Source of the DNA: a virus
Virus record (IMG/VR): IMGVR_UViG_3300023084_000003
Strand: one strand, 5' to 3'
DNA length: 64,000 nt
Part shown: piece after piece, positions 45,239 through 55,946 of the stretch
Numbering within the stretch: the first letter of the stretch is position 1
Layout: the number at the start of each line of letters is the position of its first letter
Notes under the pieces: model-generated
Database searches by the model: none
Told to the model about the DNA's origin: nothing
What the model saw: only the letters and a program-made list of their open reading frames with translations
Position numbers and translations under genes: made by a program

Positions 45239-46299
45239 CTGAATCCTCGTATGCCATTCATAATTTCAATTTTACGATATAACTCATCGTACATAGACTG
45301 ATCAAATTCAGACACTAATCCTTGATTGACTGTATCTAATTCTTCTTGTGTTCGAGTAGTTAAATAGTTCATTTCAGGCGGATTAAATAATAGATTATAA
45401 CTTCTAAGTTCATTGTCTCCTATAAACACATGAGGATTATCAGCATAAAAATCATTGATTTCTTGCATATCAAGTATATTAAAATAAGATACAGTAGGAA
45501 CTACTTTCGGGACAATACCAGCTTCTTCGTTGAGCTTTTTAATTGTTTCTAGTGTATTGTTAAAATTAGTTCCACGTATCCATTCATATTTTCTGCCAAT
45601 ATGATCTAGACTCGCTACCATTTCTACTTTTTTAAATTTTTTTAAAGTGTTCATAAATCGTTTTGAAATTAAAGAACAATTTGATGTAAGCCACACAGTA
45701 CAATCAGGATTTACTTCTGCTAACTCTTCAAGTATTTTAGCATTTCGTAGATCAGAAAAAGGTTCACCACCTTTAATATGCAATACATGCAGATCAGGCA
45801 ATAAGCTTATAATCTTTTCAATATCAGACTCAGTCAAATTAACATGAGGCTGTTGATGATTACCAAATAAATGATCGATTGTGGCCCATTTAGTACTGAA
45901 ATAACTACTACACATTATACAAGTTTGGTTGCAAATATTGCTTGTAGTAAATTCTAAATAACTAATCTTTCCCGGCTCATATTTTCTCCATTCTGGATTC
46001 AGCCAATAGAATGCTCCAGCGTGGGTGCCATCTTTTTGTTTTATTCTTGAAGCACAATTATCGCATGCAACAGTTCCCATAATACCTTTTTCTTCAAGCT
46101 CTCGTCTTATATGCATATTCAAATCAGAGTAGGGAAAGTCTTCATATTCAGTTGCCGTAGCAATTTTGTATTCTTCTATACTATCAGTTGCAATAATTTC
46201 ATTTATGTGTCTAGTGAATACCATGCAACAAGGCTTGAGCCAACCTTGTGGATCAATTACTAGCGCATGATCTGGCCATCTACATGCGGGTATATTCAT
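45223..46299 (-). CDS. Radical SAM enzyme with N-terminal SPASM/Twitch-like domain
   Basis: CRWP..KPCC..CDNC, then CNQTCIMC and KGGEPF. Confidence 0.88.
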   Translation of the reverse strand: MNIPACRWPDHALVIDPQGWLKPCCMVFTRHINEIIATDSIEEYKIATATEYEDFPYSDLNMHIRRELEEKGIMGTVACDNCASRIKQKDGTHAGAFYWLNPEWRKYEPGKISYLEFTTSNICNQTCIMCSSYFSTKWATIDHLFGNHQQPHVNLTESDIEKIISLLPDLHVLHIKGGEPFSDLRNAKILEELAEVNPDCTVWLTSNCSLISKRFMNTLKKFKKVEMVASLDHIGRKYEWIRGTNFNNTLETIKKLNEEAGIVPKVVPTVSYFNILDMQEINDFYADNPHVFIGDNELRSYNLLFNPPEMNYLTTRTQEELDTVNQGLVSEFDQSMYDELYRKIEIMNGIRGFRWQDC

Positions 46300-47462
46300 T
46301 TCAGTCGCTCAATATATTGACGATACATTTCAATATTTTTAATGCAAATTTGTTCATCAGTACCAAACTCAATCAGAGCATTGTTTAAATAGTTTCTAAG
46401 CTTATCTAAATACTCTGGAGTCTCTTCTTCTACTGCCCAAGGTGCGATATCTTGCGGGGATGTTGTTCCACCCATAGGAGCCAAGACATGATAGGCAAAA
46501 GAAAGATTTTTTCTATTACAAAATGATACTATTTTAGGCAAAGTCCACACGTTATCTTTACTAATCACAAATGAACAACCGACATCAGCAACACCATATG
46601 ATTGAAGTTCATCTATATGTTTTAAAACCGTTTCTAAATTACCATTTCTTCTTAAATCTTGATATATCTCAGGATCAATTGAATCTAATGAAATCGTAAA
46701 TTCAGTGTTTGGCCTTTGAGCAAATTTTCTTGCGTATCCATTTAAGATACTACCGTTTGTTGTAAATTGAATGCGAAGATTTTCTGGGTTTTCCTCCTCT
46801 ACCATCTTAAGAATTTTATGTACTATTCTTTGAGCAAATGGCTCCCCGCCTGTAAAGTTTAATTTATAAACTTCATGTATAATTTCACGTAAAGATTCTA
46901 CGAAAGCATCACCAACTTCTGGATCATCATATATACTTGTAAATCTATGCGCAGTTTCTGGATTCTTCTTTACAAAATCTTCCATATGTTGAGAAGAATG
47001 ATATGGACTGCAGAATTTGCATTTATAATTACAAGTATTTGAAAGTTCTAATTCTATATCCCTTGGAACAGGATGATTTAAGTCTCTCTCACCACCTACC
47101 CAGTCTGCATCTAAACTGCTTGGAGGTTTATCTGCATCGCATTGCTCTTTGCAATACCTGCACCATTCATGCAAATCACCCATCATAGAAGCTTGACGAA
47201 TTTCTTCAAAGCCTTCATCATTTTGCCATAGATCTCTTAAGCTGTCTCCTGGTTTCCATCGTGCCTGATTGGTAAAAGGATCTTTTTCGTAAGGTGTAGT
47301 ATCTTTATGCTCTCTTACATGGCGCATAACAAAAGGGCAGACCTTTAAATTGCCTTTCTTATTAATATGAATAGCTTGAAAAGGCGCCCAACAACTTACT
47401 GTTTTATATAAAGCTGGTAGTTCGGGTCTTCTATACTTGTTAATTTTATCGACGTATTTCAT
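46296..47462 (-). CDS. Radical SAM enzyme with N-terminal SPASM/Twitch-like domain
   Basis: CWAP..KVCP..CRYC, then CNYKCKFC and TGGEPF. Confidence 0.88.
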   Translation of the reverse strand: MKYVDKINKYRRPELPALYKTVSCWAPFQAIHINKKGNLKVCPFVMRHVREHKDTTPYEKDPFTNQARWKPGDSLRDLWQNDEGFEEIRQASMMGDLHEWCRYCKEQCDADKPPSSLDADWVGGERDLNHPVPRDIELELSNTCNYKCKFCSPYHSSQHMEDFVKKNPETAHRFTSIYDDPEVGDAFVESLREIIHEVYKLNFTGGEPFAQRIVHKILKMVEEENPENLRIQFTTNGSILNGYARKFAQRPNTEFTISLDSIDPEIYQDLRRNGNLETVLKHIDELQSYGVADVGCSFVISKDNVWTLPKIVSFCNRKNLSFAYHVLAPMGGTTSPQDIAPWAVEEETPEYLDKLRNYLNNALIEFGTDEQICIKNIEMYRQYIERLK

Positions 47463-48658
47463 TTATATTCCTTTAAATATGGAGCCAACTCATATATGTC
47501 TTCGTTATTTTCTCGTGCTACTAAACAAAAATCAATCCATTCAATCATTCTTTTTCTTATTTCCGCAGGAGTTTTAAACGGATCTATTGTTGTTTCAACA
47601 CTCATTACATTGTTTAAATTACTTACATGCAGTTTATCACTTACCCAATATGTGTCTGATCTTTTAGTAAACTTAGATTCTAAATAATCAAATAGATTTT
47701 TCTTTCCTTCTTCCTGATGTTGTATTGTTAAGAAGTTAGGTGAACAATACTTTGGAAACGTTACAAGGTTCGCCATACTGATACGAGGAACACCTGGCAC
47801 ATCAATAAAATAATCAATGAGTTCTGGAAGATGCATCCAGTTATAAACCGAAACAGTGGATACTACGATAACATGCCTGCCTGCATATTTATGATATCGT
47901 TTAATGTTGTTTATTGTTTTTTGAAAATTGCCTCCTCGGATCCAATCATACATTTCATGCACACCGTCAATGCTTGCTTGGACATGAACTTCATCGATGC
48001 GATGTAGCAACTCAATTACATAATCAGTAACTAACTGAAAATTAGTGCAAATCTCAACACGGCACTTCGGATTCGTTTCAGCAAGCTTTTTAAGGATAAG
48101 AATATTATTTGGATCGGCAAACGGCTCGCCACCTTTAATCGTAAGATGCTGTAGATGTGGTACTAGATCTAATACCTTATCCACATCTTCTTTCGTCATC
48201 TTATACATTTCAGTATGAAACTTGTGGTTCTCATCTCGCCAAGTAAGGCCAGATTCTACAGCCATTTTCTCATATGGCGCCCATTTAGAACTATACTTAC
48301 CAGAGCAAGTAACACACATCTGGTTACAAATATTGCTCGTAGTAATTTCCAAAAATCGAATCGGAGTAATTGGCGCGTCTTTATCTTCTTCATATGTTGG
48401 AAAAATAAAGCGATTATAAGAATCGAAACGGGCTATACGACCAGCTTCCCAGTGTACCTTACACACGTTACATTGTTTTGGAAAGTTACCTTCTTTAAAA
48501 TCTTTACGAAGCTTATCATAAACTTCACCATTAAAGAACTCAGTAAGATCAGGAACGTCTTTAATATGAGATATAGCTGTGTTGTCCCCAGCACAACATA
48601 GAACTATTTCGCCAATAGGATTAATTGTTATTCCTGTTTCAGGCACCATGCATTTCAT
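47459..48658 (-). CDS. Radical SAM enzyme with N-terminal SPASM/Twitch-like domain
   Basis: CMVP..LCC..CNVC, then CNQMCVTC and KGGEPF. Confidence 0.88.
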   Translation of the reverse strand: MKCMVPETGITINPIGEIVLCCAGDNTAISHIKDVPDLTEFFNGEVYDKLRKDFKEGNFPKQCNVCKVHWEAGRIARFDSYNRFIFPTYEEDKDAPITPIRFLEITTSNICNQMCVTCSGKYSSKWAPYEKMAVESGLTWRDENHKFHTEMYKMTKEDVDKVLDLVPHLQHLTIKGGEPFADPNNILILKKLAETNPKCRVEICTNFQLVTDYVIELLHRIDEVHVQASIDGVHEMYDWIRGGNFQKTINNIKRYHKYAGRHVIVVSTVSVYNWMHLPELIDYFIDVPGVPRISMANLVTFPKYCSPNFLTIQHQEEGKKNLFDYLESKFTKRSDTYWVSDKLHVSNLNNVMSVETTIDPFKTPAEIRKRMIEWIDFCLVARENNEDIYELAPYLKEYK

Positions 48659-51952: not shown

Positions 51953-52264
51953 ATGGCTGAAGACAACGGTTACCATCCAGCGGATACAAACGGCGACGGT
52001 GTTGTAGATGATATCGAACGCGAAATGTATCTTGAATTTAAAAGAAAAGAATTAGAAGACAAGGACGCACAGCGTGATGCAATGCGTGGGATGACTTGGT
52101 TTGCTTTATTCGGCATGCTACTTTATCCATTTGCAATTGTCTTAACATCATATTTTGGACTAGATACTGCAGCAGGAATCGTTGGTGATATTGCACCGAC
52201 ATATTTTGTTGCTATTTCTGCTTTGGTTGCAGCATTCTTTGGTGCTGACGCTATCCGTAAGTAG
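51953..52264 (+). CDS. Small two-TM membrane protein with N-terminal EF-hand loop
   Basis: DTNGDGVVDDIE fits the 12-residue EF-hand consensus; two hydrophobic helices follow. Confidence 0.7.
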   Translation: MAEDNGYHPADTNGDGVVDDIEREMYLEFKRKELEDKDAQRDAMRGMTWFALFGMLLYPFAIVLTSYFGLDTAAGIVGDIAPTYFVAISALVAAFFGADAIRK

Positions 52265-52272
52265 ATAAATCA

Positions 52273-52302
52273 AAAGGGAGGCCTTCCTAGGTGCCTCCCT
52301 TT
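52273..52302. terminator. Bidirectional intrinsic terminator
   Basis: AAAGGGAGGC/GCCTCCCTTT stem with T-rich tails on both strands. Confidence 0.8.
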
Positions 52303-52668
52303 CTATCTGTTTGTTTCGATGTACAGCACCCGGCTAGCTTTCCATTCGGTACTAGCGACTCACCGACCATCCAAAAGCTGCAGACTTATGGATGGATTTT
52401 TTTGGGTACGTTCGCGTAATTGCAGGCTTTCCCCGTGCGCCATAAGTAACGAGGACTGAGTTCTTACTGCCTGGTCGAGTTTTCCTCAGTCCTCGCTAAT
52501 TCTGGTTTTCACGTCACCGGTATTTCACGGGCGGTATATTCACCAGAATGTTCTTGCCCGACCTTGTTTACTCACGACGCGCAGGCTACGTCAGGCAATA
52601 TATCTCTTTAATCCATTTTTGCCACTTTAGCGGCTGAGGGTTTGGAACCTCTCAATATTGCCTTGATA
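52275..52668 (-). ncRNA. Putative ~390-nt structured non-coding RNA (unassigned family)
   Basis: No ORF of 60 aa or more; GC-richer than flanks; own promoter (52674-52701) and terminator; several perfect stems and pseudoknot-type pairings. Confidence 0.7.
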
Positions 52669-52673
52669 CTATT

Positions 52674-52701
52674 AATATATACTTTTTCTAGTAAATGTCA
52701 A
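52674..52701 (-). promoter_or_regulatory. Sigma70-type promoter driving the putative ncRNA
   Basis: GGGTTGACA-16-TATATT, same family as the other early promoters. Confidence 0.7.
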
Positions 52702-52721
52702 CCCTTTTATTGAATTTTTTT

Positions 52722-54755: not shown

Positions 54756-55946
54756 TTATAGTTCTTTTAGTTGTGGATGCAGTTCATATATGTTTATGTT
54801 TCTTTTTAAATTCATAAACGAAGCAAACATGTGCATTCGACTGCGCCAATTGTTATAATCTTCTATGGTCGGTATGATCGGATCGTTACTCATAAATTCT
54901 TCATTTTTAATAAACATGTGCCTATGCAAATTATCTGGCCATTTCTTATAGTTATTTCGCCAATCTTCTAGTTCTTTAAAAGTTAGAATTCTTTGAGGTG
55001 CAGCGTATTTTGGTTCGTGAACCCATCCCATCTGTGTAAAGCTTACTTGAGTGTCGTTTACTCTTTGATTCCAGTAATCAAGCACTTCATTGTAGTTCCA
55101 CATATTAAAAATATTTAAGCGATGATTGATATTAATCCATCCAGTAATTCCAGATGATTTCCATCTTTCAATATTTTCTATTGTTTGCTCAAAAGGAGTA
55201 GATCTTACCCATTCGTATGTTTTACCAATACCATCCATTGAAACGGATATCTTTACTGGATTTGAAGCTTTAGATAGTAAGTCGATATATCGCTGTGGAA
55301 CCTTTGACATGTTTGTTGTCATATCAATCAAGCACTTATCATTTACTTTTACGAGTTCTTCTAAGATGTAATAGTTGTTATTGTCAGCGAAAGGCTCACC
55401 GCCTTTTACAACGATCTGTTCTAAGTTAGGAAGTATAGGTAAGATCTTTTCAATGTCTGAATCCGACATTCTGTATAACGAAGCACCAAAGTCATTGAAG
55501 CCTGGTTCACCGGGATTCTTCCAGGATTCTAAGTCAAGTGACATTTCAGTTGCTTCCTGCTCTAACCCAATCCATTTAGAACTATAATAACTTGAACATG
55601 TCACGCAGGTTTGATTGCATAGATTTGAAGTTGTAAATTCTAGAAAGCGTATCGTCTTATCTGTTGGAATACTCGCTCTACGAGATTCACCTTTTACATT
55701 TGCGTGAAACCATGAATTCTTCATGCCAAGTTTAGCGTTGTTTAAACAGTATCCACAAACTTTACTCACCAAAGGCTCTTTATCTTGACGCAGAGATTCA
55801 AGATCTGAATGGTTGCCCCATAATTCAGCAATATTATCTACATTACTAATATGGTTGAAAGACCAAGTTCTTTCTGCTGCACAGCATATAGAAAGATTAC
55901 CGTCTGGTTGAATTGTTAGTGAATTGTGAGGAGCAGTACAATACAT
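54756..55946 (-). CDS. Radical SAM enzyme with N-terminal SPASM/Twitch-like domain
   Basis: CTAP..ICC..CGYC, then CNQTCVTC and KGGEPF; paralogue of 45223-48658 genes. Confidence 0.88.
   Translation of the reverse strand: MYCTAPHNSLTIQPDGNLSICCAAERTWSFNHISNVDNIAELWGNHSDLESLRQDKEPLVSKVCGYCLNNAKLGMKNSWFHANVKGESRRASIPTDKTIRFLEFTTSNLCNQTCVTCSSYYSSKWIGLEQEATEMSLDLESWKNPGEPGFNDFGASLYRMSDSDIEKILPILPNLEQIVVKGGEPFADNNNYYILEELVKVNDKCLIDMTTNMSKVPQRYIDLLSKASNPVKISVSMDGIGKTYEWVRSTPFEQTIENIERWKSSGITGWININHRLNIFNMWNYNEVLDYWNQRVNDTQVSFTQMGWVHEPKYAAPQRILTFKELEDWRNNYKKWPDNLHRHMFIKNEEFMSNDPIIPTIEDYNNWRSRMHMFASFMNLKRNINIYELHPQLKEL

Follow-up and report, generated by a model that had tools for sequence, protein, structure and literature searches.

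The minus strand of the window (the whole 64-kb stretch of viral DNA analysed here) carries, at positions 52270-52701, an interval that a first-pass annotation had described as a possible new large noncoding RNA. We asked whether this interval is a genuine RNA gene, whether it forms a single RNA or several, and what such a unit might do in a phage. The parts of the unit, in the order of transcription, are as follows.

52674..52701 (-), sigma-70-type early promoter: -35 TTGACA, 16-nt spacer, -10 TATATT; 11/12 consensus matches
52593..52663 (-), module A: closing stem P1 (52663-55/52601-593) around hairpins P2 (52653-36) and P3 (52634-21)
52553..52592 (-), module B: 4-bp hairpin with a 9-nt loop complementary to a downstream CGGGC
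52500..52548 (-), module X: 49-nt hairpin with purine-rich internal loops, nearly invariant
52449..52496 (-), module C: 12-bp hairpin with a conserved 24-nt loop
52404..52441 (-), module D: two small hairpins, then a conserved single-stranded tail
52367..52395 (-), module E: hairpin with a variable, covarying stem and the palindrome CUGCAG in its apical loop
52333..52366 (-), module F: H-type pseudoknot, stems S1 (52366-62/52350-46) and S2 (52355-51/52337-33)
52307..52326 (-), H3: small hairpin 3' of the F pseudoknot
52270..52302 (-), hairpin T, here an intrinsic terminator: 10-bp GC-rich hairpin (52302-52273), then a U run

A folded transcription unit on the minus strand

Transcription probably starts near 52668 (-), and promoters of the same type lie upstream of related units at loci L002, L003-5, L044 and L084. 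The unit ends with the two hallmarks of an intrinsic terminator, a GC-rich hairpin and a U run. No minus-strand ORF of at least 30 aa overlaps 52274-52721, and the plus-strand ORFs overlapping this interval are two, both short. The promoter, the terminator and the ORF-free state read by the first-pass annotation were thus all confirmed. A plus-strand gene at 51953-52264 converges on hairpin T; its product is a predicted membrane protein of 103 aa, found in the same place with 55-59% identity at L003 and L044. Because this gene on the opposite strand is conserved in place and convergent, hairpin T is probably a bidirectional terminator.

The 401-nt RNA was predicted to fold with -140.5 kcal/mol, compared to -108.5 +/- 5.6 for 100 dinucleotide shuffles (z = -5.7). 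The minimum free energy fold includes a predicted 13-bp helix joining B with the C-D junction. This long-range B:D helix was dropped; B is found without D, and the local hairpin of B covaries. Read from its sequence, the interval is a genuine, heavily folded noncoding RNA unit of about 400 nt with an early promoter and a terminator of its own.

Searches for known families were negative. Rfam 15 at gathering scores returned zero matches in the whole 64-kb window, and at E <= 10 the RNA region gave chance-level matches only, with no riboswitch or ribozyme model among them. ARAGORN found neither tRNA nor tmRNA in the window, and the GOLLD and ROOL covariance models did not match at gathering score in the 64-kb window or at E <= 10 in the region. 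Candidates rejected for want of an Rfam or ARAGORN match were tmRNA, RNase P, 6S, the group I intron, riboswitches, ribozymes, GOLLD, ROOL, HEARO and Y RNA; the first-pass annotation, which could not match the RNA to tmRNA, RNase P, 6S, a group I intron or a riboswitch, was therefore right. The Rfam search that it had proposed gave no significant match, hence no known family. We also considered mimicry of the 16S rRNA 3' domain, which the invariant blocks resembled, and discarded it when 31/300 and 41/300 shuffles scored as well against E. coli 16S; SSU rRNA models had no match in the region. Pieces of the modules may lie inside a published catalogue of about 10,000 viral structured-RNA candidates (PMC10690425).

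Structure of the modules

Relatives were gathered by pattern scans of IMG/VR and of metagenomes, followed by iterated nhmmer. The six helices drawn in the first-pass annotation are complementary base for base: stems of 9 bp (52655-63/52593-601), 7 bp (52542-48/52500-06), 11 bp (52485-95/52450-60) and 7 bp (52389-95/52367-73), and two pseudoknot stems, 52362-66/52346-50 and 52351-56/52333-38, the latter with five Watson-Crick pairs and one G-U. Covariation among homologues, the check suggested there beforehand, came out in their favor, with compensatory changes in relatives backing most helices.

In module A, an alignment of five sequences has five pairs changed on both sides in P1 and two in P3. 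The hairpin P2 had been called T-loop-like. Its loop is not kept as a T-loop, and both that reading and a tRNA-like one were rejected in favor of a covarying pseudoknot, formed by the P2 loop with 52615-52612. The window, L003 and L005 have UCCA/UGGA there, and L001, L084 and L085 have GUCA/UGAC, giving the 4-bp pseudoknot stem two double changes between the two classes of relatives.

Module B probably forms an H-type pseudoknot, in which the third loop is rich in A. Two pairs of its hairpin stem are changed on both sides in L085, and the pairing of its loop with the downstream strand is kept in 5/5 sequences, with one G-C to G-U change. The loop of module C is complementary on paper to the upstream segments GGUCGGG and GCCUG, the bases of which are more probably engaged in the local pseudoknot inside B than with the C loop. 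Together A and B make up a predicted doubly pseudoknotted domain of about 110 nt, which is an RNA family in its own right.

A 31-nt core of module X is identical in seven viral contigs and three different contexts. In L044 and L058 its outer stem covaries, as do two inner pairs, with 96% of cells paired and six pairs double-changed; an alternative inner fold proposed by RNAalifold breaks in two sequences. Module C is present at L044 between tRNA-Pro and E, with its stem changed compensatorily and its loop kept. Module D gave 38 nhmmer matches, and both of its small stems occur in several compensatory forms among the relatives.

For F, H3 and T, 38 distinct sequences were aligned. They fall into an F type, to which the window belongs, and a divergent F2 type. 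In the alignment 98.6% of the cells are paired, compared to 88.2% with partners shuffled, and 15 pairs are double-changed, a result equalled by 0/500 shuffles. When the partners were slid out of register, pairing fell to 32-48%. All ten stem pairs of hairpin T covary, and H3 has three pairs changed on both sides among the 38 sequences. The search pattern for F2 relatives fixes the 5' strands of both pseudoknot stems, which limits the covariation visible there: stem S2 has two double-changed pairs between the F and F2 types, and S1 is invariant within the set, with a compensatory C-G to A-U variant at L030. G-U pairs occupy about 30 cells of the stems, far above the non-pairs, and A-C occurs almost never. 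Since G-U pairs so far outnumber non-pairs, it is this RNA strand that is under selection, rather than duplex DNA. The predicted pseudoknot RNA E-F-H3-T, about 125 nt long, is likewise an RNA family in its own right. A likeness of F to the HDV-type double pseudoknot was rejected, the F loops being too short for the extra helices. From this module-by-module support, the RNA is therefore predicted to contain three pseudoknots, in A, B and F.

E-F-H3-T, hereafter the 3' module, was found in more than 60 contigs, where it follows gene 32 or tRNAs or belongs to a unit of the window type. A model of it, R1, whose E-values are rough, gave a single strong match per contig in nine contigs of 25-152 kb, with a second, weak match in one of them, and one match in the window. 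In the 256-kb contig that holds L085, where A-B is present, R1 found no F-T. The loop motif of hairpin T was seen only adjoining F. By these comparisons the 3' module, with essentially one copy to a genome, is a gene and not a generic terminator. About 40% of the T hairpins (~16/38) are without a U run and still keep the loop palindrome described below; several of these have a ribosome-binding site and start codon within 10-25 nt downstream.

The nearest known cassettes are the PeSLs, promoter-terminator elements of T4-like phages with short conserved stem-loops, repeated many times per genome (PMC2839356, PMC4122927). Like the marine modules, PeSLs are regulatory stem-loops by early promoters, are linked to module shuffling in T4-like genomes and have a similar stem consensus. 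Unlike them, the 3' module is pseudoknotted over some 125 nt and does not recur in many copies within a genome. This single copy weakens a generic terminator or PeSL reading, since a generic cassette would be reused.

Hairpin T, which often follows gene 32, also resembles the T4 gene 32 terminator in its G-rich stem and CUAG-containing loop, but the T4 element is a bare hairpin, whereas T closes a conserved pseudoknot RNA as its final helix. The resemblance of loop and stem suggests that the two hairpins, the gene 32 terminator and T, are of common descent. The T4 terminator hairpin is located at L081:1850-1948 (-). R1 found nothing in the T4 tRNA and gene 32 loci (L021, L081), nor beside gp32 in phages C48C1 and Melnitz. 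A blastn search of 50,697 cultured-phage records found neither module type. As a side observation, L005:1060-1528 (-) holds a true permuted, two-piece tmRNA of alphaproteobacterial type, with the tag ANDNFAPSGFALAA and an intervening segment of ~150 nt, which is unrelated to the modules, and phages of the Melnitz type also have a tmRNA annotated near gene 32.

Architectures and genomic place of the relatives

Only two distinct full-length units of the window type were recovered, the window itself and its nearest relative G001 (locus L001), whose unit is the same at 86% identity. In a 3.4-kb alignment of the two, 65 of the 131 differing columns lie inside the RNA, which takes up 12% of the length. 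The differences fall in three spots: E is replaced by another class, 20 nt are inserted between B and X, and both A hairpins are exchanged. The module cores are identical, and the G001 unit is also tRNA-less with its own promoter. The insertion, at L001:1745-1790 (-), folds into a hairpin that is a perfect palindrome of 16 nt with CGCG in its loop, and may be a new kissing loop or the scar of a snap-back duplication.

In other relatives the modules occur in different company.

L004, L005, L029: promoter, leader, X, A-B, tRNA-like element, tRNA-Thr, tRNA-Pro, E-F-T
L016, L058, L069: tRNA-Arg, tRNA-Pro, then D-E-F or E-F-T
gp32 type: gp32 gene stop codon, then E-F-T (upstream gene in L048: Pfam gp32, 4.8e-39)
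L009 group: small-ORF stop codon, then D-E-F-T
L030:1800-2062 (+) and L036:88-370 (-): tandem 3' modules, in the order F, D, E, F2, T, tRNA-Arg

In the tandem loci L030 and L036, the first, F-type pseudoknot has no terminator and carries the compensatory S1 variant; the F2 copy has T. In several relatives D-E-F-T comes after tRNA-Arg(UCU), in some cases with tRNA-Pro as well, and altogether modules flank tRNAs at L002-5, L016, L036, L043, L044, L050, L058, L063, L069 and L074. A-B stands alone between a promoter and a terminator at L084, as a free-standing small-RNA gene, and upstream of tRNAs at L085, on the 256-kb contig, as a tRNA-operon leader. In most contigs A-B and E-F-H3-T each occur without the other. 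The order is also permuted, with X before A-B in L003-5 and after it in the window. The first-pass description of a new large noncoding RNA consequently holds in one respect, that the locus is a genuine, uncatalogued multi-pseudoknot unit, and is not supported in another, that of a single RNA, each of its parts recurring alone in other phages.

At L002, L007, L008, L044 and L058, X forms one arm of another RNA, some 170 nt long. This X-bearing RNA is itself uncatalogued and has a long closing stem; it lies at L007:5070-5240 (-), L008:6340-6540 (+), L002:520-760 (-), L044:7120-7310 (+) and L058:9850-10080 (+). At L007, L008 and L058 it stops immediately upstream of a small gene's ribosome-binding site; in L007 and L008 this gene looks MazG-like. 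At L002 it is followed by a shorter paralogue without X and then by tRNA-Pro. Another element, tRNA-like, lies between B and the first tRNA at L005:6070-6190 (-) and L003:14495-14590 (+), with a canonical T-arm and an 11-bp closing stem that covaries between L003 and L005; neither ARAGORN nor Rfam called it.

L044 is syntenic with the window: the two share an SNase gene on the upstream side and, on the downstream side, the convergent gene for the 103-aa membrane protein with the genes following it. Between these, L044 has a promoter, the X-containing RNA, tRNA-Pro, C, E, F2 and T, and Rfam matched only the tRNA in this unit. As these modules make up a tRNA-Pro operon at the syntenic locus, the window unit is best regarded as a tRNA/stable-RNA operon that is tRNA-less. 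The results favor this over the ribozyme, protein-sponge and anti-defence roles suggested in the first-pass annotation, for which no support emerged.

Palindromic loops and possible roles

The loops of the 3' module share a property that emerged from the comparison. In 23/23 distinct T hairpins the loop, of 8-11 nt, holds a 6-nt palindrome, mostly flanked by A, in one of three versions: CCUAGG (as in the window), CUGCAG or CUCGAG. Among 236 other perfect-stem hairpins from the same loci, 8% have such a palindrome. The apex of E bears a self-complementary 4- to 10-mer in 38/41 distinct hairpins, of about 11 classes; the words are CUGCAG, GGCC, GGGCCC and GCGC, with GUAC, ACGU, UCGA or UUAA inside longer palindromes. 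Within one molecule the E and T palindromes are always different, so the two words cannot pair with each other, and adjacent self-complementary bases cannot pair inside a single loop. The signal is comparative only, as the window RNA by itself has 8 palindromic hexamers against 5.3 in shuffles, not above chance. Some E palindromes could be ordinary hairpins with 4-nt loops or snap-back duplication scars, the latter origin being suggested by the L001 insertion. A CsrA-type sponge with GGA loops was also considered and rejected, the GGA motif being missing from half of the T loops.

The HIV-1 DIS kissing hairpin has a 6-nt palindrome with unpaired purine flanks in a loop of 9-10 nt, and the palindrome varies by lineage and stays self-complementary. 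The marine loops have the same palindrome-in-loop design, although the RNA and its biology are unrelated and the marine molecule has two or three such loops with different palindromes. Loops switching between palindromes have been used to support intermolecular kissing loops of OLE and GOLLD (Kretsch et al., bioRxiv 10.1101/2024.12.08.627333). On these sequence patterns and analogies, we infer that the 3' module may self-associate by kissing loops.

Taken together, we lean with guarded confidence toward a reading of window positions 52270-52701 (-) as a tRNA-less tRNA/stable-RNA operon of independent modules, which would be stable and act in trans, and of which the 3' module would pair with itself. 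Such operons would be a feature of one clade of T4-like phages, uncultured and of marine and estuarine origin. Host RNA polymerase would start at the near-consensus early promoter and stop at hairpin T, yielding a transcript of about 400 nt that would be a chain of independently folding modules (A-B, X, C, D and E-F-H3-T) with no integrated fold. E-F-H3-T would ride at the 3' end of any strongly expressed early transcript, be it gene 32 mRNA, a tRNA operon or a dedicated unit. The modules might remain as stable RNAs, whether joined or cut apart in the A-rich linkers, in the way known from the T4 tRNAs and rnaC/rnaD, and might use their invariant loops to act in trans. The 3' module would pair with its own copies through the E and T loops, and perhaps H3, to form a dimer or a higher-order assembly.

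Phage tRNA regions have long been recognised to contain stable RNAs of unknown role, among them T4 rnaC and rnaD, GOLLD and ROOL. By analogy, the window unit is a putative counterpart of T4 rnaC (species 1) and rnaD (species 2), small structured RNAs that are co-transcribed with phage tRNAs. The T4 pair directly follows tRNA-Arg(UCU) and closes the cluster, a position that several marine relatives match. They differ in that no sequence similarity is visible by eye and R1 finds nothing in T4; moreover, the 3' part of rnaC looks tRNA-like, having by eye a T-arm-like sequence, whereas the marine modules are pseudoknots and the window unit has no tRNA.

The main rival is that the locus encodes one integrated large RNA of the GOLLD/ROOL kind, in which a 5' domain (A-B and X) and a 3' domain (E-F-H3-T) would be joined across a variable linker, C-D in the window and tRNAs in relatives, to form a multimeric RNA-only particle. 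GOLLD and ROOL lie near phage tRNA islands, and tRNAs are sometimes found in the GOLLD linker (Kretsch et al., bioRxiv 10.1101/2024.12.08.627333). The marine modules likewise adjoin tRNA islands with tRNAs sometimes inside, as at L044, and L003-5 and L029 share the outer parts of the window unit with tRNAs in the middle. As in GOLLD (RF01998) and ROOL (RF03087), both phage-encoded, self-complementary loops switch palindromes, here in E and T. Between near-identical marine phages the peripheral hairpins are swapped around invariant cores. The window RNA, on the other hand, is about half their size and is not matched by their models, its modules occur separately, and its oligomerisation is predicted from sequence alone. 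No covariation links the domains in the two full-length window-type units available. Because A-B and E-F-H3-T are mostly separate and the order of X and A-B is permuted, this rival is weakened, and we consider it unlikely.

A bolder form of the self-pairing idea, which we also judge improbable, is that the 3' module, with or without the 5' modules, would be a new class of phage RNA that assembles with itself. Two or three orthogonal palindromic kissing loops would then build a symmetric GOLLD/ROOL-like multimer that organises or shields phage tRNA transcripts, and palindrome switching between near-identical phages would confer self/non-self specificity in co-infection.

The modules could instead be purely cis-acting leaders and trailers, that is, signals for the processing and stability of tRNA operons (nuclease barriers, RNase sites and a terminator), with the window unit a remnant left after tRNA loss and devoid of trans function. 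Their flanking of tRNAs in many relatives, the tRNA-Pro retained by the syntenic L044 unit, the invariable place of the 3' module at the end of a transcription unit and the resemblance of T, CUAG-containing loop included, to the T4 gene 32 terminator are all as this would have it. It accounts poorly for the invariance of the cores in the tRNA-less window and G001 copies with their own promoter, for the free-standing A-B gene at L084, for a 3' module that is essentially single copy where a terminator cassette would be reusable, and for the T hairpins (~16/38) that have lost or never had a U run yet keep the loop palindrome. We regard it as quite doubtful.

A role at the DNA level, with the palindromes and conserved blocks acting as protein-binding or recombination sites like the PeSL cassettes that shuffle modules, would be in keeping with the shuffling between contexts, with the half of all differences from the nearest relative that fall within 12% of the 3.4-kb alignment, and with the similar run-of-A, run-of-G stem consensus of the nt-1/KVP40 PeSL stem-loops (PMC4122927), but it is very improbable given a copy number of one rather than many, the covariation of pseudoknot and loop-to-strand pairings, and stems that accept G-U and almost never A-C, which the other strand or duplex DNA would equally allow. 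Scarcely any more credible is a riboswitch-like or self-cleaving element, in which the F pseudoknot would sense a ligand or cleave and so control the adjacent T: its invariant core and A-rich third loop do lie directly 5' of a terminator-like hairpin, and the F2-type ACCG strand is able to pair with either of two CGGU copies, but the second copy is not kept in the window type, no such model matches even at E <= 10, and the element ends transcription units, with downstream genes that are unrelated or convergent.

Together with the more than 60 related contigs, the locus defines no fewer than two additional RNA families, both uncatalogued, among abundant marine T4-like phages, each a well-defined module of ~110-125 nt with a covariation-supported structure. 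The locus also illustrates that a large new RNA in one genome can prove to be a mosaic of smaller RNA genes. The palindromes predict homotypic loop-loop pairing that could be rewired by a palindrome swap, and because this prediction is concrete and cheap, the role of tRNA-island RNAs becomes more tractable.

One further observation concerns protein genes of the window. Radical SAM paralogues are encoded at 46296-48658 and 54756-55946 (-) of the window, and in three of them Pfam places a SPASM iron-sulfur domain N-terminally, before the radical SAM core, the reverse of the usual order.
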